Assembly (NCBI GenBank): GCA_963648085.1
Contig: CAVJDC010000001.1
Coordinates: 1-53,524 of the forward strand
DNA from: Anaerovoracaceae bacterium
GTDB lineage: Bacteria; Bacillota; Clostridia; Peptostreptococcales; Anaerovoracaceae
DNA: 53,524 nucleotides
Reading direction: 5' to 3'
The notes beneath the pieces were generated by a model. The model searched no databases. It was not told where the DNA came from and saw only the letters and a list, made by a program, of their open reading frames with translations. A program made the translations under genes and the position numbers. Below are positions 211 to 52,444 of this stretch, in pieces (position 1 is the first letter of the stretch; each line of letters begins with the position of its first letter).

Positions 211-1047
211 ATGAAGGATTTTGAGGATAATATAATAAAACTAAGAAAAATACTTGACGAGAGCAAGAAAATTGTTTTCTTTGGAGGTGCGGGCGTTTCG
301 ACAGAGAGTGGTGTGCCTGATTTTCGTTCAGAAAATGGACTTTGGAATGCAAAGACACGTTTCAATATGATGCCTGAAGAGATTGTAAGTCACTCATTTT
401 TTATGAGCAGAACTGATGATTTTTTCGAATATTATATGCAAAATCTCATTTTCACTGGAGTTGACCCAAATTCTACTCATTATGCACTTGCCGAGCTTGA
501 GAGACAAGGAAAACTGAGAGCAATCGTCACGCAGAATATCGATGGGCTTCATCAGGCTGCTGGAAATACCGAGGTTTATGAGCTTCATGGGACTATTGCA
601 AGATCTCATTGCATGGATTGCGGCAGAGAGTATGATCTTGACTATACTCTGGATAAGAGTCACTGGAAGCCGGGGACATGGACTCCATTGTGTGAAGACT
701 GCGGGGGAATCGTCAAGCCAGATGTAGTTCTTTATGAAGAGGCACTAGATGACAAGTGCCTGATGGGTGCGCTCCGTGCGATTGAAGAGGCTGACACGTT
801 GATAGTAGGCGGAACATCGCTTGTAGTTTATCCGGCAGCGGGGCTTATCAATTATTTTAGAGGAAAGCATCTTGTGCTGATAAACAAACAGGAGACAAAT
901 TTCGATAACCAGGCAGATCTGGTGATCCACGAGTCACTTGGAAAAGTATTTGCGGCGGCAGTTGATGGAATTGAGTTTGCGGAAAAGCCAGTAAAACTTG
1001 CGGATGGCAACGTGAGTGCAGCCGATTTGCCGGAAGACAAAGAGTAG
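211..1047 (+). CDS. cobB: NAD-dependent protein deacylase, Sir2 (sirtuin) family
   Basis: 278-aa ORF with a purine-rich SD (gaaaggaaaag) upstream. It has the GAGVSTESGVPDFRS NAD-binding motif, the QNIDGLH catalytic-His motif, and a Zn ribbon (CMDCG...CEDCGG). Confidence 0.93.
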   Translation: MKDFEDNIIKLRKILDESKKIVFFGGAGVSTESGVPDFRSENGLWNAKTRFNMMPEEIVSHSFFMSRTDDFFEYYMQNLIFTGVDPNSTHYALAELERQGKLRAIVTQNIDGLHQAAGNTEVYELHGTIARSHCMDCGREYDLDYTLDKSHWKPGTWTPLCEDCGGIVKPDVVLYEEALDDKCLMGALRAIEEADTLIVGGTSLVVYPAAGLINYFRGKHLVLINKQETNFDNQADLVIHESLGKVFAAAVDGIEFAEKPVKLADGNVSAADLPEDKE

Positions 1048-1157
1048 CCGAGGGCAGCTGTAGGATGGTCGGATTAGTGCGAGCTGGAGCCGAGGGCAGC
1101 TGCAGGATGGCCGGCTTGGTGTGAGCTGGAGCTGAGGGCAACTGCAGGATGGCCGGC
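1047..1157. repeat. Intergenic tandem repeat, 42-bp unit x 2.6 (gccgagggcagctgcaggatggccggcttggtgtgagctgga)
   Basis: Unit starts at 1047, 1089 and 1131 give an exact 42-bp period. The array begins on the last base of the cobB stop codon. It is GC-rich compared with the flanking A/T-rich spacer. Confidence 0.9.
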
Positions 1158-1233
1158 AAATCGTTGATGGTAAGAAAAAGAAATATGAAAAATATGAAAA
1201 AATAAAAAAATATAAAGGAAGGAACATAGATAA

Positions 1234-2013
1234 ATGAATATATTGGTGGCAAATGATGACGGAATTTTTGCGAAGGGCCTTCATGTCTTAGTGGAGGCTT
1301 TGGCTCGTGTGCCGGGAAGTAGGGTTTATGTGGTGGCACCAGACAGCCAGCGCAGTGCATGTGGTCATGGGATAAGTATGAACAAGATAGTGATGGTCAA
1401 TGATGAAGCTGTACCAGGTGCTGTGTGGGCACAGTCGATTTCAGGCACACCGGCTGACTGTGTGAAGTATGGCATAAAACACCTAAGGGACGAGCATGAT
1501 GTGGAGATAGATGTCGTATTTTCAGGAATAAATCACGGAGGAAACGTAGGAACAGACGTTTTTTACTCCGGAACAGTCTCGGCAGCTATAGAGGGAGTAT
1601 TTTGCGGAGTTCCTGCTGTCGCTGTGTCTGTGGGAACACATCAGCCGACTGATGAAATGCTTTACAATACTCAGAAGATAATATGCGAAATATGCGAAAA
1701 GGTCGTACCTAAGCTCGATAAAGGCACAGTTGTGAATGTCAATTTCCCAAAATGTGCACCAGAGGAAATCAAAGGACTCCGCGCTGCAAGATTAGGACCT
1801 AGAGAATACAACGAAAGCTTTGATATACTTGAGAATCCAAAGGGAATGAAATATTTTTGGTATACAGGCATACCGAAGGTATATGAAGATCTTCCAGACG
1901 GCATTGATACAGAAGAATTTCAAAATGGTTATATCACAGTGACGCCGCTTAAGATTGATATCACAGACGAGGAGCTGCTCGAAAGTGTATACGATTGGGG
2001 ATTGGAATATTAA
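1234..2013 (+). CDS. surE: 5'/3'-nucleotidase SurE
   Basis: The N-terminus MNILVANDDGI carries the DDG metal site. GINHGGNVGTDVFYSGTVSAAIEG is the SurE signature. The length, 259 aa, is typical. Confidence 0.95.
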   Translation: MNILVANDDGIFAKGLHVLVEALARVPGSRVYVVAPDSQRSACGHGISMNKIVMVNDEAVPGAVWAQSISGTPADCVKYGIKHLRDEHDVEIDVVFSGINHGGNVGTDVFYSGTVSAAIEGVFCGVPAVAVSVGTHQPTDEMLYNTQKIICEICEKVVPKLDKGTVVNVNFPKCAPEEIKGLRAARLGPREYNESFDILENPKGMKYFWYTGIPKVYEDLPDGIDTEEFQNGYITVTPLKIDITDEELLESVYDWGLEY

Positions 2014-2297
2014 AATAAAGGCTTGACTGGCTTGATGGAGACTGCATAGGCAGTGAGCTTGAGACCAAAGCACCGATTGACTGAAGAGGACAGTTGATGC
2101 AGGTGGGGGGAATTGGGCCAGTTGATTAAAAATAAAAGAGATGGAGGAAAATAACAACGAATTTTTTTAGAAATGTCATAACACTCGAAGACAGAGAAAA
2201 AATAAGCAGATATGTTGACGGCGCTGCAAATGGCCGCGCAAGCAGCTGCGCAAACGGCGGCACTGGCGGTCGTTACATTTTTCATGAGACATCTGGG

Positions 2298-3185
2298 ATG
2301 TCATATTCCTCGCTTTACATGTGGAGCAAGGAATATGCATATTCTTATGATATCATACAAGATCATCTGTGTGTTGCAGGGCTGAGCAACTTTGAAGGAG
2401 AGCCAGAGGCACCATTTTTGTTTCCTGCTCTTCCGGAAAATGGAATTTTTGAAGTGCCGCATTATCGCAAAATATTAGAAGAAATGGACAGGCGGTTTGA
2501 GGCGACGGGTAAGCCGTTTGTCATGCGGCTTATTCCCGAGGAAATCAAGAATGTGATGAATGATGCACGTCCAGACAGATATATCTTTATAGAGGATCCG
2601 TCAAATTATGATTATCTTTATAGCATAGAGCAGCTCTCAGCACTTCGAGGCAAGAGATTTCACGGCAAGAAAAATCACGTGAATCGTTTCGATAAAGAAT
2701 ATGAGGGAAGGTTTGCTATGGAAGATGTCTCAAGTGAAAATGCAGAAGAAATTCTTGAACTTGTCAAGCGTATCAATAAAAAGAAGGAACTTGACGGAAT
2801 CGAGGAAAAGCTGCTGCGTGATGAAGAGCGTATGATGGAAGAAATCATGAGCGAATATGATAAAATTGGTCTGGAGGGGATCCTTCTCAGGATAGACGGC
2901 AGAGCGGAAGGTATAGCATTTGGCGGAAGGCTTGGAAAGGATACGATAGTAGAGCATGTAGAAAAGGCAGATGTCGATTATTGTGGAATCTATCAAAAGC
3001 TAAACAACGAATTTTGCATCCGCATGAAGCAGCATTACACATATGTCAATCGTGAGGAAGATATGGGCATAGAAGGGCTGCGCCGCTCAAAGCTCTCATA
3101 CAAGCCGATACGACTCATAAAAAAATATATTGCACTGCATAAAGATGACGCAGAGGCGATGAATCTTTATGGATCGCCATTTTAA
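2298..3185 (+). CDS. DUF2156 domain protein (related to the lysyl-phosphatidylglycerol synthase C-terminal domain); the true N-terminus is probably upstream
   Basis: 295-aa ORF with LSALRGKRFHGKKNHVNRF and EKADVDYCGIYQKLNNEF segments typical of DUF2156. The frame stays open upstream to 2136 and encodes a family-like ITLEDREKISRYV segment without any ATG/GTG/TTG (see finding). Confidence 0.75.
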   Translation: MSYSSLYMWSKEYAYSYDIIQDHLCVAGLSNFEGEPEAPFLFPALPENGIFEVPHYRKILEEMDRRFEATGKPFVMRLIPEEIKNVMNDARPDRYIFIEDPSNYDYLYSIEQLSALRGKRFHGKKNHVNRFDKEYEGRFAMEDVSSENAEEILELVKRINKKKELDGIEEKLLRDEERMMEEIMSEYDKIGLEGILLRIDGRAEGIAFGGRLGKDTIVEHVEKADVDYCGIYQKLNNEFCIRMKQHYTYVNREEDMGIEGLRRSKLSYKPIRLIKKYIALHKDDAEAMNLYGSPF

Positions 3186-3585: not shown

Positions 3586-6500
3586 ATGCAAAAGAATTTG
3601 TCTCAAAGGATGAATGAATATGTGAAAGAACATTTGCGCACGAAGAACAGGAGACGCTTTGTGACTGCCATGGCATGCATAGTAATATTTTGCACGGTCT
3701 ATGAGCTGATCCTTCCGGCTGTCACGATGAGTGCAGATATATATTGTGGAAAAGAAGAGCACACTCATAGTGCCGGATGCTATGAAAATGTGCTTATTTG
3801 TGGACAGGAAGAATCGGAATCACACGAGCATATTGACGAGTGCTATGAAGAGCAGTTTGTATGTGAGATAGAAGAGCACACTCACAGCATGAGCTGTCAT
3901 TCCAATCCCGACGCAGACATCGAGACGCAGGAGGATTGGGAGAAGACTATTCCTGCTGACCTTGGCGACAGCTGGGCAGAAAATGTAGTAGCTGTGGCTC
4001 AAAGACAGCTGGGATATTGCGAAAGCAGTGTAAACTATGAGGTAGATGATGACAATACTACCCGTGGATATACTCGTTATGGTGCATGGTATGGCGCCCC
4101 TTATGCAGATTGGGATGCTATGTTTGTGTCATTCTGTCTAAATTACGCGGGAGTACCTCAGGATCGTTTTCCTTATGAGGCAGACTGCGCTGATTGGATG
4201 CAGAATCTGCAAAAGGCAGGACTTTATGCTGCAGCTAAGGATTATACCCCAGTATCTGGTGATATTATTTTCTTTGAGAATGGCAGTGACAGCCTTTCTG
4301 ACCACGTGGGAATCGTATCAGAAGTAAAGACTGCAGACGGTGATGCAACTGTCTGTACTATTGAGGGAAATGTCGGAGATAAGGTTTCTAAGTGTGAGTA
4401 TGATCTGACAGACAAGGATATCTTAGGCTATGGCATTTTGCCTTTAAATTGCGAATGCTATGATGATGCCGGAAGCCGTATTTGTGATGACGACTGTGAT
4501 TGCGATTGTCATAAATCAGATGAGATCAAAGAGGCTGAAAGTAAAGAGGATACAAATAAAGATGCTGCAAGCAAAGAGAACGCAAGTAAAGATAATGCAA
4601 GCGAAGAGGACGGTGCAAAAGAGGGCGCGCAGGGTGCTTATTCGCTTAGCTGCAAGGGTGAGGACTATGAAATCATTCTTACGTGGAATGAGGAAGGAGT
4701 TCTGCCTGAAAATACTACAGTGACTGCTGCAGAGATTTCCCAGGACAGCGAGGAATATCAGAAATATTACGATGATACAGTGACTGCACTGCAGGAAAAA
4801 GGAAGCTTAGAAGAAGGTAAGGATTTTTCCTTCGCCCGTTATTTTGATATACAGCTCACTAGTGATGGAAAGAGTGTGGAACCAAATGGAACAGTTGATG
4901 TAACTGTTCGTTATGATGAATTGACCACAAATGACATGCAAGTAGGAACTATTCACTTTACCTCAGATGGCAGTGAAATCTTAGATGCTACTGCAGTTGA
5001 TGATGAGTCGGGTGGTACAGCGATTACAAACCAGCAGGACAGCTTTTCTGTCATTGGCAACTTCGGTTTCTACGATGCGATGGTGACTAGTGCAGATTCT
5101 ACGGCTACTGGTGCGACTCAGGCGACTGTAAAGCTAGAGTGGGCAGATGGCGAGGAACATGCGGAGTCTTACACTATTACGCTGAAAAAAAGCGATGATG
5201 ATTCAACAGTTGCCACTGCTGTGCTAAGTGCAGACAATAGCTACTCCTATACATTTACAGGGCTTTACGCCAACACGACCTACTATGTAGATTATGCGAT
5301 TGACGGCTACAAAACAACAGAATCAGCGACGACATCCGCAAGCACATCATGGACAAAGGCAAGCAGCTTATCGAGCGGCAATACCTATGTCTTGGTATAT
5401 AACAACTCAAATAGTGTTTCTACAAGCGACAGCAGTCTCGCACAAGGAAGCGCAACAGTGTCTGGCAATACGCTTACTAGTGACGTACCAGAGGCGATGC
5501 AGTGGAAGTATACCAACAGCAAGCTGCAAAATGCCAGCACAGGCACATATTTGACATTGAATGCAACTCAGTCAGGTTGGGGTTGGTGGTCGTCTTCTTA
5601 CACGTACAGCTGGGGCTTAGGCAACGGAACGAATATTACTTACAGTAATAATAAGATTTCCAGTACAGCAAATAATACAACACGCTATTTGCAAAATTAC
5701 AATGGTGCAGCAAGTGGGCAGAGTAGCGGCACTGCCTACACTTTATATCAGAAATCTGATATTACAGAGATGCAATTTACGATTAAAGCAGTGCAGGATG
5801 CAAGCGAAATCGTTGAACCAGACGACTATAATGCCACATATAATTTTGAACACAACAAGACGATCGATTCACTAAATGACGGAGCAGAAAATCCGGATAC
5901 AAGCCTTGCAGGACAGGACTTCTATCGCCTTTATCTCGACATGACCGGCAAGACGGAGCCTATAGACCTGGTGGTTGTAGTAGATGCGTCTGGCAGCATG
6001 ACTAAGACAGACATGACTGTAAATGGACAATCAGGTCAGACACGTGTCGCAGCGATAAACAATTTCATGAATGGCACGACAGGCAGCAGCTACAATAGCG
6101 ATGGCTTTGTTTCGAAATTCCTAAGCATGAACAGTGAAAATCAGATCTCGGTGGTCAGATTCTATGGTCCTACAGGAATCACTACAACTTCACCGAGCTA
6201 CAGCTATAGCAAAGACAGTGATGTGCGCTGCAACTGGACAAGCACGGTACAGTATGTAAACTGCTCAAATCAAAGCAACAATGGTACAAACTACGAAGCA
6301 GGACTGCTGCAGGCAAGCGCCCAATTTGAGAAGGTTGCTGACAGTGGTCACAAAAAGGTCATGATCTTCTTGTCTGATGGTGTGCCTACCTTTTATATTG
6401 ATGATAATGGCAGCAGACAGGGAACAGGTGTCTATGCAAACCAAACCAACGTCAGCAACTGTAAGCAGCCTTCAAAGGATGCTTTCGACGCCTTCCGCAA

Positions 6501-8847
6501 GAGTAATCCTGACGTAGATGTTTATACTGTCGGTGTTTCAGAAGATGTCACATCAGACGATCTGGACGGCTCACAAAGTCCAGAGGTTCTTCAGTATATG
6601 GCAAATAATGGCAATGGAACATTCTATGCAATCGAATCCGATATGAGTGAATTGACACTAAAGCTGCTGAACAATTGGTTCCCTTATAATGTTTCCATCA
6701 CTGACAAGCTGAGCAAATATGTCAGCTACTATGAGGATCAGCCAGACGTAAAGGTAACCATGAAAAATCGGGAGACTGGAGATGTGACCACACTTTATGA
6801 AAATGGAAAGGTCCTAGATACGAGCATCCTAAAGAACGTATATTACCTGCCAGATGATACAAGTACTGAACCAACTGGATCTACCGGCGTGGTGAGAGCA
6901 GTATTTGATTCTAGTTATCACATGAATCCAAACTATATTTATACGCTGTCATTTAATGTAAAGACCACACAGACAGCATATAATGAGTATGCAGATCATG
7001 ACAATAGCTATCAGAGCGTAACTGGTGATGCGGATACTGACTACGGCACAAACGCTACAAGCTCGAATCAGCCTGGGTTCCACTCAAACAATGCAGCGTG
7101 GGTGTCTTACACTGTGAAAGGAAATTCATATGATTCGGGATATAAGCACCCTGTAGTGCAGGTCTATAACAAGAGCAAGGATGATGACTCAACCCAGGAA
7201 GAGGGTCCAGCCCACGAAGATACCACACCTGAGTTTGAGCACAACAAGACGATCGACTCACTAAATGACGGAGTAGAAAATCCAGACACTAGTCTGGCAG
7301 GACAGGACTTTTATCGTCTTTATCTTGATATGACTGGCAAGAGCGAACCGATTGACCTGCTGCTTGTCGTAGATGGTTCGGGCAGTATGATGACTTATAG
7401 CGACATCGATGGACAGCGACGTGATGCTGCATTGAGCGATTTCGTGAATGGCACCGACACCGAGGAGGGTTTTGTTTCCTACTTCCTCGGATTAAATGAT
7501 GATAATAAAGTTTCAGTTATCCAGTTTGCTGGTGATGCTACGTACAACGGAGACTACAGCAGCAGCGGTAGTACTACCAACTATGGTTCCCTCGGGGGAA
7601 ATGGAGGAAATAATATATCTAAGAGCAGCTGGTCTGCGGACAAGGACAGCAGAGTGCTGATGGACTGGAAAACTGCAGAAGCTATTGGCACTACGGAAAT
7701 AGATACTACTGCACAGCAGTACCAAGGAACAAACTATGAAGCAGGTCTGAAGCTGGCAGCGACGCAGTTTAAAAGTGAAGCTGTTGCTGGTGACGGACAC
7801 CGCAAGATTATGCTGTTCCTGTCAGACGGTGCGCCTACTTACTTTATCATCGACCAAAATGATGTAGGAAAAAAATCTGCCTATAATGGATCGTCAAATA
7901 TGAAAGATACCGATCTTACTGCCAGCAACGTTGGAAAGAGATATGGTCATGGCTTCGGTACGGAATATGCTGACACAAAAGAAGCAACAATGCAGGCTTT
8001 CGATGACTTCGTGGCAGCCAATCCTACTGTTACAGTTCACACTGTTGGTGTCTCAGAAGATGTCACACAGGTAGTGTACGGTTCTGGAAACGATGGCGTA
8101 ATCAGCAGTCCAGAGGTTCTCCAATATATGGCTAAAAATGGCGGCGGCAATTACTATGCAGTTACTAATAGCTTCTCGACATTGAAGACGGATTTAAAAA
8201 ATGTTCTCTTCCCACATGATGTCACCATCACAGATATGCTGAGCAAGTATGTGCGTTATTATGGCACGCAGCCAGACGTAAAGGTGACGATGAAGGATAA
8301 TTCTGGAAATGAAACTGTCCTGTATGAAAATGGTGCCGTTACATCTGCTGCATCCGGAATCCTGACAGGTGTCACATATACAGATGGCGACACATCCGAT
8401 ATGCCTTCAAGCTCTACCGGAACAGTAAAAGCAATCTTTGACGAGAACTACTGCTTCGACCCGGCTTACGTATATACGCTGTCATTCAATGTCAAGACCA
8501 CGCAGACCGCATATAATGTATATAAGTCAAATGGCAGCAATTACAAAGATGTCATTGGTGATAAAGAAACAGACTATGGCACAAATACCACAAGCTCGGA
8601 AGAGCCTGGCTTCCATTCCAACACAAGAGCGTATGTCACCTATAGCGTCGACGACACTTCTTATACCAGAGAATATGACCATCCAGTCATCCAGGTTGAT
8701 ATCTATTCAGATATAAAGCTGCCAGAAACAGGCGGTATAGGCACCACACCATTCTATATAATAGGAGGTCTCCTTGCTGCCGCTGCTGGCGTCATACTGG
8801 TGACCAGAAAACGCATGAACAAAACTGATGAAGCATCAATCCGTTGA
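3586..8847 (+). CDS. LPXTG-anchored surface protein: N-terminal membrane segment, Cys/His-rich motif, CHAP-like domain (Cys replaced by Asp), two tandem vWFA (MIDAS) + Ig-like stalk modules, LPETG sorting signal
   Basis: 1753-aa ORF with SD aaaggagga upstream. N-terminal TM segment: FVTAMACIVIFCTVYELILPAV. CHAP-like block: YGAWYGAPYADWDAMFVSFC...GDIIFF...DHVGIV...TIEGNVGDKVS. Two MIDAS sets: DLVVVVDASGSM/GTNYEAGL/FLSDGVPT and DLLLVVDGSGSM/GTNYEAGL/FLSDGAPT. C-terminus: LPETGG + hydrophobic stretch + RKR. Confidence 0.9.
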   Translation: MQKNLSQRMNEYVKEHLRTKNRRRFVTAMACIVIFCTVYELILPAVTMSADIYCGKEEHTHSAGCYENVLICGQEESESHEHIDECYEEQFVCEIEEHTHSMSCHSNPDADIETQEDWEKTIPADLGDSWAENVVAVAQRQLGYCESSVNYEVDDDNTTRGYTRYGAWYGAPYADWDAMFVSFCLNYAGVPQDRFPYEADCADWMQNLQKAGLYAAAKDYTPVSGDIIFFENGSDSLSDHVGIVSEVKTADGDATVCTIEGNVGDKVSKCEYDLTDKDILGYGILPLNCECYDDAGSRICDDDCDCDCHKSDEIKEAESKEDTNKDAASKENASKDNASEEDGAKEGAQGAYSLSCKGEDYEIILTWNEEGVLPENTTVTAAEISQDSEEYQKYYDDTVTALQEKGSLEEGKDFSFARYFDIQLTSDGKSVEPNGTVDVTVRYDELTTNDMQVGTIHFTSDGSEILDATAVDDESGGTAITNQQDSFSVIGNFGFYDAMVTSADSTATGATQATVKLEWADGEEHAESYTITLKKSDDDSTVATAVLSADNSYSYTFTGLYANTTYYVDYAIDGYKTTESATTSASTSWTKASSLSSGNTYVLVYNNSNSVSTSDSSLAQGSATVSGNTLTSDVPEAMQWKYTNSKLQNASTGTYLTLNATQSGWGWWSSSYTYSWGLGNGTNITYSNNKISSTANNTTRYLQNYNGAASGQSSGTAYTLYQKSDITEMQFTIKAVQDASEIVEPDDYNATYNFEHNKTIDSLNDGAENPDTSLAGQDFYRLYLDMTGKTEPIDLVVVVDASGSMTKTDMTVNGQSGQTRVAAINNFMNGTTGSSYNSDGFVSKFLSMNSENQISVVRFYGPTGITTTSPSYSYSKDSDVRCNWTSTVQYVNCSNQSNNGTNYEAGLLQASAQFEKVADSGHKKVMIFLSDGVPTFYIDDNGSRQGTGVYANQTNVSNCKQPSKDAFDAFRKSNPDVDVYTVGVSEDVTSDDLDGSQSPEVLQYMANNGNGTFYAIESDMSELTLKLLNNWFPYNVSITDKLSKYVSYYEDQPDVKVTMKNRETGDVTTLYENGKVLDTSILKNVYYLPDDTSTEPTGSTGVVRAVFDSSYHMNPNYIYTLSFNVKTTQTAYNEYADHDNSYQSVTGDADTDYGTNATSSNQPGFHSNNAAWVSYTVKGNSYDSGYKHPVVQVYNKSKDDDSTQEEGPAHEDTTPEFEHNKTIDSLNDGVENPDTSLAGQDFYRLYLDMTGKSEPIDLLLVVDGSGSMMTYSDIDGQRRDAALSDFVNGTDTEEGFVSYFLGLNDDNKVSVIQFAGDATYNGDYSSSGSTTNYGSLGGNGGNNISKSSWSADKDSRVLMDWKTAEAIGTTEIDTTAQQYQGTNYEAGLKLAATQFKSEAVAGDGHRKIMLFLSDGAPTYFIIDQNDVGKKSAYNGSSNMKDTDLTASNVGKRYGHGFGTEYADTKEATMQAFDDFVAANPTVTVHTVGVSEDVTQVVYGSGNDGVISSPEVLQYMAKNGGGNYYAVTNSFSTLKTDLKNVLFPHDVTITDMLSKYVRYYGTQPDVKVTMKDNSGNETVLYENGAVTSAASGILTGVTYTDGDTSDMPSSSTGTVKAIFDENYCFDPAYVYTLSFNVKTTQTAYNVYKSNGSNYKDVIGDKETDYGTNTTSSEEPGFHSNTRAYVTYSVDDTSYTREYDHPVIQVDIYSDIKLPETGGIGTTPFYIIGGLLAAAAGVILVTRKRMNKTDEASIR
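5845..8697 (+). repeat. Intragenic tandem duplication of a ~1.3-1.5-kb vWFA-plus-stalk module (copy 1 5845-7164, copy 2 7234-8697)
   Basis: Both copies start with nearly identical DNA encoding FEHNKTIDSLNDG(A/V)ENPDTSLAGQDFYRLYLDMTGK(T/S)EPIDL. Both end with (K/D)HPV(V/I)QV. The copy starts are 1389 bp apart. Confidence 0.9.
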
Positions 8848-8873
8848 TATGACGGATTGGTGCTTTTAAGTTT
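8832..8873 (+). terminator. Probable terminator overlapping the stop codon of the LPETG protein gene
   Basis: A 13-bp stem (agcatcaatccgt / acggattggtgct, one G-U pair) with a 7-nt loop is followed by tttaagttt. Confidence 0.5.
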
Positions 8874-9416
8874 ATCGAAATGCCGCCCTTTTTTCATTTA
8901 AGAAGCTAGATGATGGAAAAAATACAAGAACTTAGTACAGATGCACTGTGTGAAAAAGCAGTCGAGTAAAAAAATTTTAAAGACAAAAATAATTTGACAT
9001 ATATTTAACATATCTCTTGAAAAAATAAATAAAAAGGATTATCATAACTACGGCAGTAAATTGAGACAATAAAATAGCATTTATCCTGAAAAATACGCCA
9101 ACTTTAAAGGATACATTTGTACAATTGACAAGACCATAAAATTTACAAATAATATAAACACAAATGGCATAAATATATAAACATATAAATAATATAAACA
9201 AAAATGACCCAACTACACAACTATATAACAAATGATATCGTTGGGACCTACCCTTGATATAGAATTATTTCACGTGTCTAAATATCACAAAAGGAGGGAT
9301 GAATTATTTTACTGCATCATGTCCGATAGTGGCATGATAAATGAATCAATCGTTTAAACACGATAAATGACTCGATCATCTATTAATGTAAGAAAAATGA
9401 CAAAGGACAAAAACTA

Positions 9417-12400: not shown

Positions 12401-13223
12401 AACTGGTGAAACTGTCACAGTTACAGCAGCTCTTACACCTGACTCTGCAGAAAGTCTTGCAAGCGGTGAAATGAAATTCACATATGATACAGAAAAGCTC
12501 GAATTCATTAATACAGCACCAAACACTACTGTTCTTGGCGACAATGCAAAGTCAAGTGTAAGTGAAGGCGTATGCGTTGCGTCATTTAAAACTGATTCTG
12601 GCAGTGAAGTTGCCGTTTCAGAAGACACTCCTCTCACACTGGCAACCTTCACATTTGAGGCAAAAGCTGTGGGTACCGCTGACTTCACTGTAACAAAAGC
12701 AGTCGCTTCCGCGAAAGAAAAGCTCACAGGAAGCACTGTTAATCTGCCGAAGAGTGCGACAAGTATCACATTGATAGCTAATAATATTAAGATAGATACA
12801 TTTGGATCTGATTATAAGCTTCTCAAATATAAAGCAGACGCTCTGCCTGAGTCAGGCAATGCTTATTATGTTGGCGATACAATGCTGACTTATGTTCCTG
12901 CATATTCTCAGGGTGACGATGCAGAAAAATACGTTTTCGTAGCACTTTATAAGGACGGGGAAGAACCTGCTGCACCTATGGTAGAGACAAAGACCGGCAC
13001 TTATGAGACTATCACGGCGACAGGAGACGTAAATAAGGACACTGAGGTAGATATAATCGATGCTCAGGTTGTTATGTACATAGTGGCCAGCAAATTTACA
13101 AGTGCCACTAACGGTATCGACTGGCTCAATAGTGACGTAAATGGCGACGGAGCAATAAATGCTCTTGATTCTCAGGCTATTCAGTATTATGTTCACTATG
13201 ACAAGTTTGGCACTTTCAATTAA
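9417..13223 (+). CDS. Secreted surface protein: signal peptide, GLUG-motif module, G-rich beta-helix-like region, cohesin-like domain, conserved spacer (X-like), dockerin
   Basis: 1268 aa. Signal peptide: MKKMKKTLSILLVLCMAVSMFAGLGISANA. GLUG-type repeats: NIGLFGSVSG, GVGGVVGS, YAGGIVGK, YCGGIVGY. Cohesin-like block: YKTGETVTVTAALTP...GEMKFTYDTEKLEF...LTLATFTFEAKAVGTADFTV. Dockerin loops: DVNKDTEVDIID and DVNGDGAINALD. Confidence 0.9.
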   Translation: MKKMKKTLSILLVLCMAVSMFAGLGISANAAEAVLAENNAAGYNSGVGTENDPYIIATSNQLAYLASQVNSGNTYSGKYFKLDCNIDLSGAAWTPIGGGSSAYDFAGSFDGNNKIISNLNISAASQDNIGLFGSVSGTVKKVVVSSGSVEGGKNTGAVVGKNYGTVTDCSNIGCSVTSAGLGQGVGGVVGSCWNDGTITNCYNSAAVSGTGASTYAGGIVGKAESSISGCTNSGSVTSLSYCGGIVGYAAVHPDNCTNSSSTPSDIMGYLAAADASDTTNVTSGGSYHVIGDATFNISTDEPVSIVGNGTAYRVSIIYSTAANLTISDLKVSGPATAASNIIDFAEGTSNILNIEGTSVLENDNTSLNCAMIHVENTADLTSSLDISGAGTLYMYKNSMGAAIGADTGEANGAVTINSGNIFIKGSKTGALIGNDTTTNTALQNRIGDITIKGGNINLVNKAQGAGIGGSRMSVAKNCKIEGGNVTLVTDYNAPVIGAGAQKKNASGANGNLIVTGGSVKTMVTSNGYSGFNINSSKSEETTDVAIKADKTNGTDPVYLYKLDVSNISPVDGEYTVRVDNEQSPYYKGGLHQYHYTASTTSTTANWTPTADNCLYLYLTAGNHSIDVNGTTVNVDWDSSASSFTTSAVNPSDEVSLAEEDDVITIYPKGDGEVVYWLTNPQFNFFQVTFEKGKKYLINMSAYDSKTQAAELYFKAKEGGYNGSLDGVTFIIPDGTTFSYFDVGYKEKVDFTIEGAKTENGYATLNQKTYDGYKDSNGNITDSKGNIYTGAESMFQIYDDSSLTIKNLNVAINPDQKLNIKAFDQRGIYTGSSAQSSYYTGTVNLENVNMTGCARLKNYIIYAADATLNNVKFDTTDIPFYMGTTNGAKKSTLTINSIDYSSCTGTAISTQGDLNVMLNPTGDIKIGGSIISKAAIKVTPQDGYDIESMTVNGKSVSVPTKETTLSDAVTSGLNIKMTPPPATYTSSITADKESYKTGETVTVTAALTPDSAESLASGEMKFTYDTEKLEFINTAPNTTVLGDNAKSSVSEGVCVASFKTDSGSEVAVSEDTPLTLATFTFEAKAVGTADFTVTKAVASAKEKLTGSTVNLPKSATSITLIANNIKIDTFGSDYKLLKYKADALPESGNAYYVGDTMLTYVPAYSQGDDAEKYVFVALYKDGEEPAAPMVETKTGTYETITATGDVNKDTEVDIIDAQVVMYIVASKFTSATNGIDWLNSDVNGDGAINALDSQAIQYYVHYDKFGTFN

Positions 13224-13374: not shown

Positions 13375-13412
13375 AATAGTATATTTACTATATATTTTCA
13401 GGGAGAATTCTC

Positions 13413-40293: not shown

Positions 40294-40377
40294 CATGTCT
40301 AGGATGAGGACATTTTAGAGACATGTCTAAGATGAGGACATTTTAGAGACATGTCTAAGATGAGGACTTTTTAGAGA
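40294..40377. repeat. Tandem repeat, 28-bp unit x 3 (catgtctaagatgaggacattttagaga), abutting the SD of the giant gene
   Basis: Unit starts at 40294, 40322 and 40350. Unit junctions create the perfect 10-bp palindrome AGACATGTCT. The last copy runs into agagaggggaagcag-ATG (40388). Confidence 0.92.
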
Positions 40378-40387
40378 GGGGAAGCAG

Positions 40388-49300: not shown

Positions 49301-52300
49301 ACATTTGGCGAGATCACCGGATGTAAGAACTACGGAAATATAAATGCAGATGGCAGCTGTGTCGGTGGTATAGTGGGATACTCGACTGCAGGCGTGTCTG
49401 ATTGTGAGAATCATGCCGACATCGGTCTAAATGAGGATATAGATTTGGATAGCGAATCTGAAGATGACGAGGACAAAAAGGATGATGATTCTTTAGTCGA
49501 TGCTAAGGCAAGCTATATCGGCGGAATCGGCGGATATATCATTGGTAAAGAAACAACAGTGACATCTGGCACATCTGATACAACTTATTCGTCTGGAACA
49601 ACTGATTCATCTGGAACAACTGACGTAACCGAGACGACGGTAGTTTCTGTGAGAAACAATCACAATTATGGCAAGGTTCAGGGAAGCCAGTATGTAGGAG
49701 GAATCGCAGGGCAGGTTCAGGGACGTGCAGAAAATTGCACAAATGAAAAAGGTGCTGATATCACTGGAGTTCAATATGTAGGCGGAATCGGTGGATATGC
49801 AGCAGGAACTACTTCATGCGACAACTATGCAAATGTAATAGCTTCCGACGGATTTGTGGATAAGGAACAAAGTGCGCCTCAATTTGTCGGCGGTCTTGGC
49901 GGTTATGTGGGAAATGTAAGCAATTGCAGCAATCATGGCAATGTTGAAGTTACATCCAAGCTGTCTAAAGATATCCAAAATATCTACGAGATAGATAAGA
50001 ATTATAGTGACAAAGATAGCCGCAATGTATTCATAACAAAATATGCTGAGAAGAACCAGAATGTGAGTCTTGCTGTCGGCGGACTTGCAGGACATCTCAG
50101 AGGAAGCCTCAGCGATTGCGAAAACCACGGAACAGTAACTGCTGCATCTTCATGCAGTGTCGGTGGTGTAGCTGGAGCTGGATCTAAGTTTGATATCAGC
50201 AATATACAGAACTTCGGATCTGTCACGGGCGGTTCGTGTACAGCCGGAATTGCTGGGTCTGTAGAGCTTCTTTCAGGCGGAACAGGAGAAGGCAAGAATG
50301 GCCAGATGACTAGCTGCATAAATCTTTCATCAGCAGTTATCACAGGCGGTCATTATACTGGAGGCCTCATCGGATATGTTACGGCACAAAACTCCAACGG
50401 TATAAACGTAATCCTGACAAATAACTATGGCGATGTAAGTGGCGGTGACTATGTCGGTGGTCTTATAGGATGTATGGCTGACTCAGGCATCGGTTCAAAT
50501 ATGAGTGATGCATATATCGGCTCTGATGATGGTACGTGCAACAACGGCGGTACTGTCACAGGCGGAAGCTACGTTGGCGGTATAGTCGGCATGATGAGCA
50601 GAGGCAATGTGAGATATTGTCTGAATCTGGGAGAGTCGGACAATGTCAAGGTAGACAGTTACAGTACGCCTTATGAGGATGAAAATAAAGAAGGAGCGAC
50701 AGTCGTGAATGCGTCAGGCACTTCAGGAGAGATTGCAAGTGCAGCAGTAATCGGCGGCAAGTCAGCAATCGACGATGGCAGCAAGGGCGAGTATGTCGGC
50801 GGTATCGTAGGATGGCTGAAGGGCGGAAGCTCCGATGGAAGCACAGCCGGCAATTCATTCATGTACAATTGCGGAAATTGCGGTTCTGTCAGCAGTGAAG
50901 GCAGGGATGCGGACTTTGTAGGCGGAGTTGCAGGAAAAGTGCAGGGAGATATCTTCCTTTCAAGAAGCCGTGAAGGCAGCATAGATGCTCCATATGCGAA
51001 GCATAAGGGAGGCGTTGCAGGCGAGGTTACAGGAGAGACAAGCTATTGCTACAGCACTAGCGGGTTCAAAAATACTTCTGGAGGCGAGAGCAGCTCGGGT
51101 GGTGAAGCATATCTGGTCGGAACGGCTGGAAGTGCAGTCAGCTACTGTTACACTACAGGAAGCAGTATCTTTGAAGATGGTTCGCCAAGTTCTGCAGCAT
51201 GCTTTACAAGTGTGACCACGGCGACTGCAGCTGCCGTGCTTGAAGATCTCAGTACCGATTTCAAGAAGGACCTTACACCAAACAAGAAGACAGACAAAAT
51301 CTATGCGGAAGGAAATTTCATAGATGATGACGTAAAAATCAACAGTGGTCTTCCAATCCTAAGCTGGGAAAGCAAAATGTATACGAGCATAACCTTCTAT
51401 GATTACACTGGAAGTACGATTCTCGGCACAGTAGTTGGGGCAAAAGGTTCTATATCGACAAGTGGAATCGGACATGGAAATCAGCCTCCTCAGAAGGCAG
51501 AGGATGAGGAATATACATATTCATATGAATGGGCTGGATGGTCACTTTCACCACAAACTGACACATCTGTGACACCTGCCACAATAAACCCGGCATCGTG
51601 TGAGGGTGTGGCTAACCTGTACTCAGTATGGAAGCTAGTGAAGACTCCGAAGGAACAGAAACAAGAAGAGCCAGAAGATAATCCTGAAAAAAGGCCTAGT
51701 TCGAAGCCAAAAGTAAATCCGAGCCCGACGCCGACACCTGATCCGACCCCAGATGATAATCCAAAGCCGTCAGATGACAATAATAAAAATAATGACGGAA
51801 ATGGCAATGGCAATGGCAACGGAAACGGCAATGGCAACGGCAACGGAAACGGCAATGGAAATGGCAGCGGAAATGGAAATGGCAGCGGCAATGGCAGCGG
51901 CAACGGAACTGGCAACGGAACTGGCGATGGGACAGGAAGTGGAACTAGCAATGGCGCAAATGGAACCTCTACGGGAGGCGCAGCTGCTGCAGGTTCTACA
52001 ACTTCAGGCTCAAATGGTGACTCAAATGTAAATAGTAAGCAATCTGATGACGGCGAGCAGGCAGATGAGTCAACTAAAGTCGGAGTGAGCGACAAGATCT
52101 CAAGTATCAAGTCAAAGACGACGAAACTTGTGGAAATCGATGATCCTTCAGGTGGACAGGCTGGCTCGGGAAGCGATGCTGACAAAGCCCCTGAGGAGGA
52201 TATGTCGAGATGGGCGCGCATCATCTTATATATGTTGATCATATTCCTAGTCGGCGGTGCAGTGCAGCGTTATATCAGATTTAAAAAAGATACATTATAG
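40388..52300 (+). CDS. Giant (3970-aa) secreted GLUG-motif surface protein with acidic/low-complexity repeat linkers, Pro-rich and (NG)n stalk, and a C-terminal transmembrane anchor
   Basis: Signal peptide: MSNFSKKLVAWVTFVFISLSTVGSITAVPVSA. Many GLUG-type repeats: SVGGIVGK, GTGGVIGA, MAGGIAGR, TGGIGGIVG, RCGGIVGY, YAGGIIGY, YVGGIAGQ, YVGGIGGY, FVGGLGGY, YTGGLIGY, YVGGLIGC, YVGGIVGM. C-terminus: PSPTPTPDPTPDDNPKP, then NGNGNG..., then WARIILYMLIIFLVGGAVQRYIRFKK. No LPXTG or SLH. Confidence 0.9.
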   Translation: MSNFSKKLVAWVTFVFISLSTVGSITAVPVSAAVKTDSASHVNSSSFTASEHSAKASAENINEDDEEGDGAFARLAESSLSGNLSELILGDYFNLTNGNGDKDTSKDSADKASVKSDSGKDSDVSSSDKASALSVSEVDADSSEGDSKSDSGKDTSESDQSENDEIDQSEIELKEDTVASALRNGDTAEAIRYYISSTTPKTYNLDKDTHGMIYVKNPESSRKVGFTNALTLAPADSKESVSCTNLTIQSMIESDDENIWKPVRLTLEGLKITSPAEDYPDLQNVNEGSDSDGAQTQTSEIDTTGSDSILYFDTSGYKFNKKPEANEYTQDLKLNSNIVLNVNKPGQTGLRSRQMAYYVDSSTGENIHIRSKLRINNYEYSKYYSLIINASNGAAGIEGLYVVCEYNGRKKNIPPEMSADGKNYAVGQGVILRADENSAHLSTERNKENPEDSYFMFDTSQMKDGEDAKENLDKNGIFVSVDGGENTEVAGSTYIRGGFSGKSTKPMTEYQDAEGNAVNPVVRIWLGSGKDHYFEINGELFEVAWDADSESFKMKDIYEVTTVGNDEEASKKVTYSTEHFKDKTDEEAKSVKATEGTEVKVRVEAKADYYVKGIKVEKVKSESDGGDTDDIGTGDTGSEGTGSDGSEGTGGKTDGEGSEGTGDTGSEGTGSDGSEGTGGKTDGEGSEGTGDTGSEGTGSDGSEGTGGKTDGEGSEGTGDTGSEGTGSDGSEGTGGDGAGEKESLEVEVTKSNDSTSAGEADEKSGPKWAEYTFEMPAGDVEVTPIYGERQSYKIGAISVKCGDKYLTEDDEIEAQLSAVSVESIERKSNAEDTDSESGKDEDSESGKDEGSESSKNTIRDSEDSAFKQGEDVLKEGDTVTLKIEPSLFWTVTSAKYTYKDKDGNIQEQVLTGENNKYVITMPGSDIDFEFECYEAPSTKIVFADDVTDHDTDAPDVSCENGISKLKKNGKTNYIIKNGDTADITILRSWARGYADAWYLSSMYYTYEYTIDGSSTESGSAEGNSDAEDGSSTESESTDGSTVTTGEGRADISEEEILAATDRSYHAKTGDKYKDKVTKIYEKGALEEKTSLTLDTSKIIDTIAKENSISDENRTSIRIKKVTYHAAYKKYYAVKIFEGTVKAGTDTDDNEIRRIEVTNADGSPFYRYYGVDGIENNEDNNSGASTPYRLQNFKSTSKTYSYTNEYYLRAGQKVHLRIWNDDSYITTLDSVTLTDSDGKVIQTLTEYADKLDYKDEGYIWIADDNSKVYTSYVTITMPASDVTVDADYSFYKIKHNSFEHGEYYWTGSDYKRGTDNRGVGSGYPNTIAFIKPDAGYKLQYVKIEKEVKDPETGEVKTDPKTGEVLWETDEELEALCNDKLDENGNVAEAVYTYDTEKGVYTHEIKFNMPAHNIRVTPVMYNATEYDVNIESSEAGNICVEEVSRVLKEEQNIAGKVTPAIKDITYSRADHADDPDAGRVGMKAMPNYTVKLSVSLNDNFRLKKVVVKDADGNEVKVSDADTTAPYFVMPEKSVTVSMEYEKRFTAKIDETVENGTLAIKTDSEESNIIALPADAECTVNYTSAEGYGLSRMWYTYVKDSDEGTQSEGGDSQGTGDASQGTGGDSQSTEVEITRNAEGIYAFKMPAQDIVIHAQFSKLHTVKVSPDIQKGVLYIASNVLQATTSADIEKDGLQELQAAKDNEISVVVVPRNENYSLKKIYYVTDKSDDQRTGETGESGETGRTGETGGTGGTSTAINSETVIYPDEKGDFKFTMPDANVTIYAEFENNGKAYKITSDFDNDERTEAGHLFRGAVLSADKDAEDYISISVLDSESASGTGSGESGTGSGTAGTGGGTSGTDGETSGSAEASEGQTVIVAVKDMDRGEYYTGYGAIRYKYRYNNKEITGIADISECDASGNALDKTQMQEALCTLECADEERIHYYTFTMPDADVEVCVRYTKANEWDGLTIDVSWFDPDEDEYYISTGAQLMGLAALVNGIYNDEIDVVIGDDTSKTEAKISDSDSGRGTGKSLIVDHKEIMEEDPSSSNKVSSNVYHYGEYSFVGKYVYIDSDLDMGGENQYARYMPIGGQYLMNYKDIDENEGIGDTHLSSSFSGVLDGLGHTICNVWCDRYVAGENYGDSQSIGIVGRLGVHENDEEALWPTNPTVRNIVLGTRAEGNSTADSNIRGRRSVGGIVGKIGKSSTDGIGGIVENCINKASIWATDKQGTGGVIGAAENGGYTAHCANFGKVENTLSDSAGMAGGIAGRNENDILSCFNIGTIKKPSGYSSSAMAIGTNNLGSPSISHTYYLASSAAGGGYYKSASLSDMIADCKKSTSYMKSKDFVDELNYAGDVWFSSSEANSEENENDGYPILFYQTSDRTKKCTSKVKITVADTEGGSVTVETLYGAMHDIGKSEKVSCGTTVKLSSKTESGKVLDYYTINGVKFEGDMAFITEDTEIGAIFRSVSPVKLYLPESPDKFPSDYYYLTIRKNGTEVDSEGKFINITSKTVPSSVTTELAMDEYLYPYAYVINDKDQGASVNAGGEVTYDAENGGSIHTDEWGKYIIVYEGDNLQFRAQLKETALNHGTQHLTNSFTFTVTYYSTERDAGGIDTAKKSTGEGSAMNIGGKYAPKSDSKWGLLTVNLEEGIRHWISEPVSWDETGDITGTAGSRVSGYYDISWYKVDTEGNPLSTSYDISTPYQLAGVSYLVNYGVTYTDANGDEKKKSVDFDGITLNLTADISLANPDYDGVLGTCYWVPIGAGTADYAIDYSTNINNKEYSMKYGGSTTPFRGTFEGNGHTVYLSTYYTSAAGNIGISHAKGLFGYVEGTVRNVTIDAAQGPVAAGDVTGKYLGTVAGCLAGGEISGCQNNLKVVSGDSVDNAKTGGIGGIVGVMHNGTISGCTNNAKIGKFTRSVRCGGIVGYQTGGTVKDCTNTKNGTVFASSYFDSRFNDNCSYAGGIIGYQDGRYSGTFGEITGCKNYGNINADGSCVGGIVGYSTAGVSDCENHADIGLNEDIDLDSESEDDEDKKDDDSLVDAKASYIGGIGGYIIGKETTVTSGTSDTTYSSGTTDSSGTTDVTETTVVSVRNNHNYGKVQGSQYVGGIAGQVQGRAENCTNEKGADITGVQYVGGIGGYAAGTTSCDNYANVIASDGFVDKEQSAPQFVGGLGGYVGNVSNCSNHGNVEVTSKLSKDIQNIYEIDKNYSDKDSRNVFITKYAEKNQNVSLAVGGLAGHLRGSLSDCENHGTVTAASSCSVGGVAGAGSKFDISNIQNFGSVTGGSCTAGIAGSVELLSGGTGEGKNGQMTSCINLSSAVITGGHYTGGLIGYVTAQNSNGINVILTNNYGDVSGGDYVGGLIGCMADSGIGSNMSDAYIGSDDGTCNNGGTVTGGSYVGGIVGMMSRGNVRYCLNLGESDNVKVDSYSTPYEDENKEGATVVNASGTSGEIASAAVIGGKSAIDDGSKGEYVGGIVGWLKGGSSDGSTAGNSFMYNCGNCGSVSSEGRDADFVGGVAGKVQGDIFLSRSREGSIDAPYAKHKGGVAGEVTGETSYCYSTSGFKNTSGGESSSGGEAYLVGTAGSAVSYCYTTGSSIFEDGSPSSAACFTSVTTATAAAVLEDLSTDFKKDLTPNKKTDKIYAEGNFIDDDVKINSGLPILSWESKMYTSITFYDYTGSTILGTVVGAKGSISTSGIGHGNQPPQKAEDEEYTYSYEWAGWSLSPQTDTSVTPATINPASCEGVANLYSVWKLVKTPKEQKQEEPEDNPEKRPSSKPKVNPSPTPTPDPTPDDNPKPSDDNNKNNDGNGNGNGNGNGNGNGNGNGNGNGSGNGNGSGNGSGNGTGNGTGDGTGSGTSNGANGTSTGGAAAAGSTTSGSNGDSNVNSKQSDDGEQADESTKVGVSDKISSIKSKTTKLVEIDDPSGGQAGSGSDADKAPEEDMSRWARIILYMLIIFLVGGAVQRYIRFKKDTL
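42281..42592 (+). repeat. In-frame 84-bp tandem repeat, 3 identical copies + 1 partial, encoding GTGDTGSEGTGSDGSEGTGGKTDGEGSE
   Basis: The units starting at 42281, 42365 and 42449 read identically, base for base. The fourth copy (42533-) diverges after ~55 bp. The antisense ORF 42214-43083 is an artefact. Confidence 0.95.
51794..51945 (+). repeat. In-frame 6-bp microsatellite-like repeat encoding (NG)n / (SGNG)n / (TGNG)n
   Basis: ggaaatggcaatggcaatggcaacggaaacggc... The antisense ORF 51490-52242 (PLPFP repeats) is an artefact. Confidence 0.9.
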
Positions 52301-52334
52301 CATACTGCTGCCAGAGACACAAAAAATAGCAAGA

Positions 52335-52444
52335 AAACATTGGAAAAAAAGATTGACAAAAAAACATTGGTAAAATAAAATCGGTAAAACAACATTGGTA
52401 AAAAAACATTGGTAAAAAAACATTGGTAAAACAACATTGGTAAT
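52335..52444. repeat. Intergenic tandem repeat, 14-bp unit (acattggtaaaaaa), 4 tight copies plus 2-3 looser copies at 27-28-bp spacing
   Basis: acattgg cores occur at 52337, 52364, 52392, 52406, 52420 and 52434. Confidence 0.9.

Follow-up and report, generated by a model that had tools for sequence, protein, structure and literature searches.

Locus-specific tandem-repeat arrays at unusual density in a chromosomal segment of an Anaerovoracaceae bacterium and its sister species

A 53,524-nt stretch of DNA from an Anaerovoracaceae bacterium (contig CAVJDC010000001.1 of assembly GCA_963648085.1, positions 1 to 53,524 of the forward strand; hereafter the window) carries arrays of short tandem repeats between its genes. 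Taken singly, each of these is an ordinary variable-number tandem repeat (VNTR), or minisatellite; what is unusual is their density, and its restriction to one clade. The question raised by the locus is whether such an accumulation reflects a property of the lineage or a function of the arrays themselves. Both answers had been put forward in a preliminary description of the sequence, the first as a high rate of replication slippage or tandem duplication, the second as selection for spacers of variable copy number. The evidence given below favours, with moderate confidence, a rise across the clade in slippage or tandem duplication, or in how far their products are tolerated, with selection acting as a filter.

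Density and sequence of the arrays

Tandem Repeats Finder (TRF) was run on the whole window, and arrays with a period of at least 10 and a score of at least 80 were counted. All eleven intergenic arrays of the preliminary description were recovered, essentially at the coordinates and periods given there, and TRF added a twelfth, a weak AT-rich array of 40 bp ×2.0 at 9147–9228 (score 101, 78% matches). The intergenic arrays have periods of 14–52 bp and are contiguous and head-to-tail, with 2.0–8.3 copies rather than the 2.3–10 reported earlier. All twelve lie in spacers between open reading frames (ORFs) on the + strand, where they occupy nine of 19 spacers and make up 17.6% of the window's intergenic DNA. 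Second-order Markov simulations of the window (n=30) produced 0 arrays, against 21 in the real sequence, coding arrays included.

The baseline for comparison was taken from other Lachnospiraceae/Clostridia genomes, with the SDR protein of the window as anchor. The best 80 of 501 SDR matches in GTDB genomes, all at ≤85% identity, supplied 80 loci (1.22 Mb), which were treated with identical TRF settings and coding mask, the automatic split between coding and intergenic DNA being made by stop-to-stop ORFs of ≥150 codons. In the baseline 13 arrays are intergenic, a density of 0.11 per 10 kb (per kb of non-coding DNA, 0.10), with a maximum of two arrays at any of the 80 loci. The window, under the same conservative criterion, has 10, which corresponds to 1.87 per 10 kb (per kb of non-coding DNA, 1.45); spurious antisense ORFs masked another two in the automatic count. 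The excess is about 17-fold, with 0.57 arrays expected at the baseline rate (Poisson P = 6e-10), and the density that had seemed striking by inspection is thus borne out. With coding arrays included, the values are 3.9 per 10 kb in the window and 0.29 in the baseline. A whole-genome alignment of E. coli yielded just 18 variable minisatellite loci (PMC2884548).

The excess also reaches beyond the surface-protein genes of the window, since the 9.8 kb to its left (leuA-leuC-leuD-leuB-GDSL lipase), available from a strain of the same species, hold five additional arrays. Two of these lie in the leuC-leuD spacer, which measures 310 bp in the home species and 72 bp in the sister species.

The earlier statement that the units share no sequence holds as well. 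In an all-against-all local alignment of the 12 units (both strands, rotation allowed) the maximum was 18, against a mean maximum of 18.4 after shuffling, and a search for 5- and 6-mers in 30 units, taken from both the home and the sister species, found none shared above shuffle expectation. The motifs TTGAC, GACAT, TGCGGC and GGA, which had been suspected by eye, do not exceed shuffle expectation in these 30 units either. Across 1.56 Mb searched, no unit has a match outside its own locus and the orthologue of that locus in strains of the same species. As units at different loci are unrelated, a dispersed family resembling mycobacterial interspersed repetitive units (MIRUs) or repetitive extragenic palindromic (REP) elements is ruled out; so is a CRISPR array, because the units are contiguous and without spacers.

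Within most intergenic arrays, the identity between units is 78–96%. Three arrays, of which two are coding, are perfect (37 bp ×2.4, 84 bp ×3.7 and 18 bp ×2.9), and this indicates that they are very recent. Several periods are nested (21/42, 17/37, 19/57 and 8/16/78), which points to repeated rounds of duplication.

Gain and loss of arrays within the clade

Strains were collected by exact-protein look-ups, which gave three NCBI metagenome-assembled genomes (MAGs) and several Logan unitigs with flanks 98–100% identical to the window. Genome assemblies of the home species include GCA_963644445.1, GCA_963620025.1 and GCA_963628515.1, and those of the sister species GCA_964570415.1, GCA_963602445.1 and GCA_963611885.1. 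The comparison covers the arrays named in what follows, to which those at 27196 and 52334 do not belong; the 27-bp unit of the former had no match in a scan of JGI metagenomes. Copy number differs at most arrays for which there is more than one strain to compare, including those at 20376, 38348, 39566 (the 37-bp array), 39976, 40294, 2220 and 38067 and the leuC-leuD array, and the length differences correspond to whole units: +78 (2×39), +28, +37, −38 (2×19), +84 and +120 (multiples of 12) bp. The 39-bp array at 39976 has 2.4 copies in the window, in L002 and in L003, and 4.4 in L001 (+78 bp, two units). The 28-bp array at 40294 has 3.0 copies in the window and 4.0 in L002, and the 19-bp array at 38348 has 8.3 in the window and 6.3 in L003. 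In the array at 39534, the 37-bp unit is present 2.4 times in the window and 3.3 times in L003, and L002 retains the 17-bp part only. Upstream of the thiolase gene (20376) there are 2.4 copies of the 34-bp unit in the window and at least 5.2 in L098, where the array is interrupted by the contig end. To the left of the window, the 38-bp leuC-leuD array has 3.3 and 5.7 copies in two strains, and the 52-bp array at 38067, with 2.2 copies in the window, is rearranged in L001 and L003, in 52/39-bp versions.

Turnover is also seen at 2220–2267, where sequence comparison reveals in the window a degenerate 12-bp proto-array (GGCGCTGCAAAT-like, about 4 units, not called by TRF) just 5' of the LPG-synthase-C ORF. 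At this site L100 has 84 bp and L101 has 120 bp more of the 12/24-bp unit (24 bp ×3.9 and ×6.0 by TRF). Coding arrays vary too: the in-frame repeats of a 545-aa protein differ in L001, with 4.2 copies of a 36-bp and 3.9 copies of an 18-bp unit, and L001 and L002 align across the perfect 84-bp repeat with a gap (42339–42533) that indicates either fewer copies or a collapsed assembly there. No variation was seen at 23664 (in L098), at 34191 (in L001) or, across four assemblies, at 1046, where the 42-bp unit is present in equal copies in L099, L100 and L101; the Logan unitig L102 has one unit fewer.

Could the arrays be artefacts of short-read metagenome assembly? Logan short-read unitigs do break at array edges (L004–L006 at 38502, L111 at ~1060), and the 84-bp repeat is missing or collapsed in the two strains just mentioned. 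Unitig ends of this kind mean that the arrays are real in the reads and that they also hinder assembly. However, arrays and unit variants recur across independent samples and assemblers (NCBI MAGs, ENA MEGAHIT contigs, Logan), and distinguishing substitutions in most units allow reads to be placed. Assemblers, moreover, tend to collapse repeats rather than invent them, and the array-free outgroups include assemblies that may be long-read, as the contig names of the 71%-identity outgroup introduced below suggest. An artefact is hardly credible as the source of the arrays. The outcomes that would have told against the preliminary description were not those observed: array density is far higher than in other Clostridia, copies vary among strains that are 98–100% identical, and the arrays recur in independent assemblies.

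A second level of comparison is provided by the sister species, which has kept the gene order and in which the SDR protein is 94% and coding DNA about 77–84% identical. It is as array-rich as the home species, but the arrays in the corresponding spacers are built from unrelated units. Those between cobB and surE have 54/18 bp; behind the LPG-synthase gene the unit has 27 bp, behind ispE 12/25/50 bp, in the spacer that separates the gntR and radical SAM genes 37 bp, and past that spacer 28/32 bp. The SDR start is preceded by a 16-bp ×2.7 array, and a 20-bp ×2.5–3.7 array stands immediately before the ribosome-binding site (RBS) of the giant gene (3970 aa in the window). In the 5' spacer of the giant gene, the 28-bp array of the home species and the unrelated 20-bp array of the sister occupy the identical site between conserved flanks, and in the alignment the 20-bp unit can be recognised as a derivative of its own 3' flank. 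In the spacers compared, no array is common to the two species, which indicates that loss, too, is efficient. With no array older than the split, and both species full of them, high rates of birth and death are implied in both.

Outgroups were chosen as a graded series from homologues of the radical SAM protein (74%, 71% and 67% identity); an SDR homologue at 86% identity (L109) is non-syntenic and was not used. The SDR gene points to Lachnospiraceae, but homologues of the radical SAM protein with a taxon name are found only at ~50% identity, in Anaerovoracaceae-type taxa. The two closer outgroups keep the syntenic block GDSL-cobB-surE-LPGsyn-thl-ispE-gntR-rSAM. Between cobB and rSAM in this block there are 3–5 intergenic arrays in the home and sister species, 1 in the outgroup at 74% (which has two weak arrays per 21 kb) and 0 in the outgroup at 71%; the outgroup at 67% has retained only gntR-rSAM of the block and has 0 arrays in 21 kb. 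The contrast between two array-rich species and relatives with 0–2 arrays per 21 kb limits the trait to a narrow clade. The gntR-rSAM spacer itself is 80–162 bp long in this clade and 22–43 bp in the relatives.

For the proposal of a high slippage or duplication rate, the clade-specific excess, the unrelated units and the whole-unit changes are all favourable, as are the frame filter and the IspE inserts described in the next section. The part of it that does not stand on its own is the rate, because formation and weaker purging are inseparable here. Put in figures, the home and sister clade makes or keeps tandem duplications at roughly 15 times the frequency seen in its relatives (~100 kb sampled). 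The model would be as follows. Arrays would arise in place through tandem duplication of local sequence, by a process blind to sequence, strand and gene function, and would then grow and shrink, presumably by replication slippage or unequal sister-strand exchange. Selection would strip away the harmful ones, so that arrays in spacers and in-frame arrays in tolerant regions, such as the linkers of surface proteins and the loops of IspE, persist; most would be neutral passengers. The ultimate cause would be a change in replication or repair in the ancestor of the clade.

Several points weigh against this reading. Faster formation and slower loss (e.g. through weaker selection or a small population) look alike in these data, and the replication and repair genes lie outside the sequence examined. 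The material sampled (~62 kb of the home and ~40 kb of the sister species) is one chromosomal neighbourhood, so that any genome-wide statement is an extrapolation. The split between coding and intergenic DNA is crude, although its bias runs against the density claim. Home and sister sequences appear from their contig names to be short-read metagenome assemblies, and mis-assembly could have altered the exact number of copies in the longer arrays. Finally, the same spacer sites were hit in both species (before the RBS of the giant gene, after the cobB stop), which could reflect site-specific selection; these could equally be simply the sole permissive sites.

The nearest competitor is ordinary formation combined with unusual retention, whereby arrays are poorly purged owing to a small effective population, weak selection for compact spacers or the loss of a deletion-promoting pathway. 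Restriction to a clade fits retention as well as it fits higher formation; the 78–96% unit identity of most intergenic arrays implies that many are not very young; and the spacers are longer than those of relatives, as described for leuC-leuD and gntR-rSAM. Against this, most compared arrays vary at a flank divergence of 0–2%, and new arrays are found within species, which amounts to ongoing gain and loss. The perfect 37-, 84- and 18-bp arrays are very recent, and the lack of any array common to both species shows loss to be efficient too. Retention is considered unlikely, though less so than the other alternatives.

Position, reading frame and possible function

Gene identities were assigned by Pfam (Sir2/CobB, SurE, thiolase, GHMP kinase (IspE), GntR/FCD, radical SAM, SDR and cohesin/dockerin proteins) and back the identities guessed in the preliminary description. 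Its placement of arrays both 5' and 3' of genes, beside housekeeping as well as surface-protein genes, agrees with the positions found; housekeeping flanks comprise cobB, surE, thl, gntR, the SDR gene, leuA, leuC/leuD and leuB. Consensus scans for promoters and terminators were used solely to place the arrays and are not evidence of function: they returned 7 promoter-like matches, compared with 5.8 ± 2.5 expected in shuffled sequence.

Two arrays abut or overlap a stop codon. The GC-rich 42-bp ×2.7 array at 1046–1157 begins at the stop codon of cobB, in the cobB-surE spacer, and the 21-bp ×5.0 (or 42-bp ×2.5) array at 34191–34295, in the p545-SLH spacer that follows the gene for the 545-aa protein, begins 18–20 nt inside ORF 32574–34211, the stop codon of which is contained in the first unit. 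No + strand promoter or terminator was found by consensus scan in either spacer, and both arrays are therefore probably operon-internal. Three others lie 3' of genes. Those at 38067–38183 (52 bp ×2.2, GC-rich) and 39534–39654 (a compound of 17 bp ×5.4 and 37 bp ×2.4, the latter 100% identical) come directly after the intrinsic terminators of the SLH-protein gene (38028–38059) and the SDR gene (39464–39480), respectively, while an A-rich 14-bp ×7.9 array (52334–52443) lies 3' of the gene for the 3970-aa surface protein. The 37-bp unit holds a weak promoter-like sequence, TTGACA-17-TAAAGT (10/12 matches), and promoter-like sites occur in or near this array at 39595–39623 and 39632–39659. A near-consensus match, TTGACA-17-TAAAAT (11/12), is found at 52353–52381, where it is formed by the degenerate first units of the 14-bp array, with the other units 3' of it.

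The remaining arrays, apart from the weak one at 9147, precede genes. A 34-bp ×2.4 array with an inner heptamer TTGCAGA (20376–20458) ends 72 nt 5' of the thiolase ATG at 20530, and a 33-bp ×2.6 array (23664–23750) lies 165 nt 5' of the GntR/FCD regulator gene. The largest (27 bp ×7.6, score 335; 27196–27401) forms the end of a gene-free stretch of 1.7 kb, 131 nt 5' of a dockerin-protein gene, and its unit holds a perfect 12-nt palindrome, GTGATATATCAC. The 19-bp ×8.3 array at 38348–38502 is probably situated in the 5' leader of the SDR gene, since a promoter-like TTTAAA-16-TGnTATAAT (38262–38289) lies upstream of it. The long spacer 5' of the 3970-aa gene contains a 39-bp ×2.4 array (39976–40067) and a 28-bp ×3.0 array (40294–40377), which ends 11 nt before the ATG and abuts the RBS.

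Some of these arrays carry or repeat sequences that resemble translation signals. Throughout 40294–40390, every 28-bp unit has a Shine-Dalgarno-like GAGGA with an ATG 12 nt on and an ORF of seven codons (MSKMRTF, stop), and the unit begins with cATGTCTAAG, similar to gATGTCAAAC in the region of the true start of the 3970-aa gene; judged by its sequence, the array looks like a series of decoy translation starts. Upstream of the SDR gene (38545–38572) there are two Shine-Dalgarno-like motifs, AAGGAG and AGGAGG, 12 nt apart, and in the sister species (L007 9948–9990) the 16-bp ×2.7 array (AATATTAGGAGCAAAG) repeats an AGGAG motif right before the SDR start codon. The start of the LPG-synthase-C-domain protein may be affected as well. 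It has 295 aa in the home species (window 2013–2298 region), 324 aa in outgroups (L113 5207–6181) and, as called, 368–410 aa in the sister (L104 6927–8159), where the ORF starts 9 bp after surE and passes through a 42-bp ×3.3–4.3 array. The 12-bp repeat region of the home species lies just 5' of the ORF, in a different frame, and the N-terminus seems to have been remodelled, or mis-called, owing to the repeats.

The repeats noted earlier in coding DNA (15, 84 and 6 bp, and 12 and 30 bp in ispE) were all found by TRF. All are on the + strand and in frame: a 15/45-bp ×3.3–9.8 repeat in a surface protein of 1543 aa (16652–16798), 12- and 30-bp repeats forming a lineage-specific insert in IspE (22015–22350, evident from the translations), the perfect 84-bp ×3.7 repeat in the 3970-aa protein (42281–42591; 100% matches, score 622), and a 6/12/18/24-bp repeat of AATGGC type near the C-terminus of the same protein (51795–51930). 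To these are added a 36-bp ×5.1 in-frame repeat (33286–33470) and a perfect 18-bp ×2.9 repeat (33830–33882), both in the 545-aa protein and on the + strand. The period is divisible by three in 9/9 coding arrays with a score of at least 80, compared with 5/12 intergenic ones. In eight cases the array belongs to a large surface-type protein (SLH, Flg_new, cohesin/dockerin context) or to the partial protein with which the window ends.

The ninth coding array is that of IspE, a housekeeping kinase. In the home species IspE reaches 399 aa through two inserts that contain repeats. Both loops also carry inserts in the sister species, where the units differ (388–415 aa, with copies varying among strains), and in outgroup proteins of 347 and 313 aa the inserts are shorter or absent. 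A preferential association of arrays with surface or host-interaction genes is not seen, as arrays also flank housekeeping genes and occur inside ispE.

The alternative that the arrays are selected as regulatory spacers of variable copy number, either contingency loci or promoter repeats like those of Mycobacterium tuberculosis, especially for surface-protein genes, can now be weighed. Copy number is indeed polymorphic. The 28-bp array abuts the RBS of the 3970-aa gene, and the independent 20-bp array of the sister at that site is equally variable; promoter-like hexamers are present in the 37-bp unit and the 14-bp array, and a predicted 5' leader holds the 19-bp array. Contingency loci of Haemophilus, Neisseria and Campylobacter mostly have units of 1–9 bp, placed in ORFs or between −35 and −10 elements, where a change of one unit switches the gene. 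The present arrays share with them slippage-prone repeats beside surface-protein genes and copy numbers that vary within a species. They differ in that the units have 14–52 bp, half of the arrays flank housekeeping genes and coding arrays, in the window without exception, keep the frame; nor does any array of the window stand between −35 and −10 elements. Arrays are as frequent after terminators (38067, 39534) and in the spacers cobB-surE, leuC-leuD and p545-SLH as upstream of surface-protein genes, and they occur inside IspE; the units have no common motif that a regulator might recognise; the promoter-like matches are at chance level; and the arrays at 23664, 34191 and 1046 do not vary in the comparisons given above. 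An invertible-promoter architecture was considered too and rejected, as flanking inverted repeats are absent from the two large spacers, where only terminator hairpins occur.

In M. tuberculosis, promoter repeats with long units are known to be phase-variable in copy number, and the repeated unit there is a mapped promoter (PMC12817950). The likeness to these repeats and to MIRU-VNTR loci lies in long-unit intergenic arrays, some of them in operons or promoters, with strain-variable copies, and this offers a plausible route to an effect on expression. MIRUs, however, are dispersed families related in sequence, unlike the units described here; only two of the present arrays hold promoter-like hexamers, and most lie outside promoter positions. 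The second proposal of the preliminary description, selected contingency spacers, is thus not upheld, and regulatory selection is regarded as quite improbable as the general explanation. From their sequence and location, a side effect on expression is probably exerted by a few arrays, namely the 28-bp array by the RBS and the 37- and 14-bp arrays with their promoter-like hexamers, and these could shift expression between strains.

Another possibility is that the arrays act as RNA or DNA elements themselves, as protein-binding iterons, structured leader or 3'-end RNAs, or sponge-like RNAs. REP elements are a single palindromic family with hundreds of dispersed copies. Arrays in 3' position are GC-rich (66–69%, compared with ~37% in other intergenic DNA), loosely like REP elements or bacterial interspersed mosaic elements (BIMEs), with which the extragenic location is also shared, but the present units are locus-specific, mostly non-palindromic and arranged head to tail. 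Folding of every array on both strands against permuted-unit controls gave z near 0 on both strands for nine of the 12; somewhat better folds were obtained at 27196 (minus strand, −2.3), 23664 (plus strand, −2.2) and 40294 (both strands, about −2). Apart from these and the palindrome in the 27-bp unit, there is little that would suggest such elements: no general RNA structure across the arrays, no Rfam family at gathering score, no common motif, and no conservation of sequence between the sister species at the same site. A role of this kind is very improbable.

Known repeat systems and neighbouring features

VNTR or minisatellite loci of bacteria serve in multiple-locus VNTR analysis (MLVA) typing, for example in Yersinia pestis, Bacillus anthracis and Burkholderia pseudomallei, and the accepted mechanism of their variation is replication slippage or unequal exchange. 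The arrays described here agree with such loci in their head-to-tail units of 10–100 bp, their locus specificity, the whole-unit differences between strains, and their occurrence both between genes and in frame within genes. The difference is one of amount, with about 2 intergenic arrays per 10 kb and over a sixth of the intergenic DNA (17.6%, as given above), and of distribution, the rise being limited to one narrow clade. Such arrays would be good markers for strain typing. They also break short-read assemblies of the organism and distort or inflate gene calls, through spurious ORFs that run across arrays and variable N-termini.

A closer parallel is found in Borgs, extrachromosomal elements of archaea (PMC9879509). 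There, too, arrays are pervasive in intergenic and coding DNA, each is unique and independent, turnover is rapid, and the nearest comparison genomes are nearly free of them. Further likenesses are coding arrays with periods divisible by three that are concentrated in extracellular proteins, arrays that start in the ends of ORFs, genes almost all on one strand, and homologous proteins with different repeats at one place, as in IspE here. Borg repeats, however, are essentially perfect and A-enriched, whereas the present arrays are mostly 78–96% identical, with only the 37-, 84- and 18-bp arrays perfect, and A-enrichment is ruled out by an A content of 30.1% in arrays, against 35.0% in other intergenic DNA (31.9% in coding DNA). 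The setting differs as well, as this is apparently an ordinary bacterial chromosome with housekeeping genes. The wider interpretation that suggests itself is a genome-wide and still active minisatellite burst in a narrow, uncultured clade of gut Clostridia, affecting intergenic DNA, operon spacers and the loops of housekeeping enzymes and caused by a heritable change in replication or repair, and thus a chromosomal counterpart of Borgs; it is put forward only tentatively, as a possibility somewhat short of even. Candidate causes would be a slippage-prone replicase, or the loss of a helicase or exonuclease that suppresses tandem duplication.

The interest of the locus is at the level of the lineage, where orthologous genes are surrounded by array-rich DNA in two species, and by DNA free of arrays in the nearest syntenic relatives. 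Array-rich and array-poor sister lineages constitute a natural experiment on the control of tandem-duplication rates in bacteria, a question that is also open for the repeats of Borg elements, and if the burst is real, a comparison of the array-rich clade with the array-poor sister lineages syntenic to it could reveal the cause. No published report of a repeat-rich lineage of Lachnospiraceae or Clostridia was found, in a literature search of incomplete coverage.

Several other features of the neighbourhood deserve mention. Every large ORF of the window (1–53524) is on the + strand, and the whole of it shows strongly positive G>C and A>T skews, with GC skew up to +0.27, as would be expected of DNA from the leading strand of a Bacillota chromosome. 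The window has no Rfam match at gathering score, and no tRNA or tmRNA gene. Surface proteins of 1753, 1268 and 1543 aa and a 635-aa cohesin+dockerin protein are encoded in a block of ~16 kb (3586–19976) between the genes for the LPG-synthase-C protein and thiolase. Since both the sister species and the outgroups have these two genes side by side, the block resembles a species-specific insertion of surface-protein genes.

The stretch that ends with the 27-bp array (25822–27531, 1.7 kb without a convincing ORF) contains two strong hairpin terminators (26001–26036 and 26136–26174) and a near-consensus promoter, TTGACA-17-TAAAAT, at 26301–26329, followed by ~0.9 kb of unique sequence and then the array. 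A relaxed Rfam scan of this gap returned only spurious matches to microRNA-type hairpins. In the sister species the equivalent gap measures 2.2 kb and has no nucleotide similarity inside, and in outgroups sporulation genes (SipL, SpoIIR) come after the radical SAM gene in place of a gap. The stretch could represent either a long leader or a non-coding RNA that has not been described. A small ORF with a RelB antitoxin domain (23172–23444; 90 aa by the ORF finder, 87 aa in the gene call of L098) may be an orphan antitoxin, as no toxin gene is evident beside it.

In one strain of the sister species (GCA_964570415.1, L008 10984–15874), the gene call places the start of the giant gene no earlier than 15874, after three small antisense ORFs; in other sister strains the gene starts at ~11290, and in L008 it may be disrupted, frameshifted or mis-assembled. 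Among SDR homologues from other metagenome assemblies, P0001, P0009 and P0010 (311–415 aa) have internal tandem duplications of 11–150 core residues, which are either assembly loops or real duplications within the gene, unrelated to the lineage studied here.

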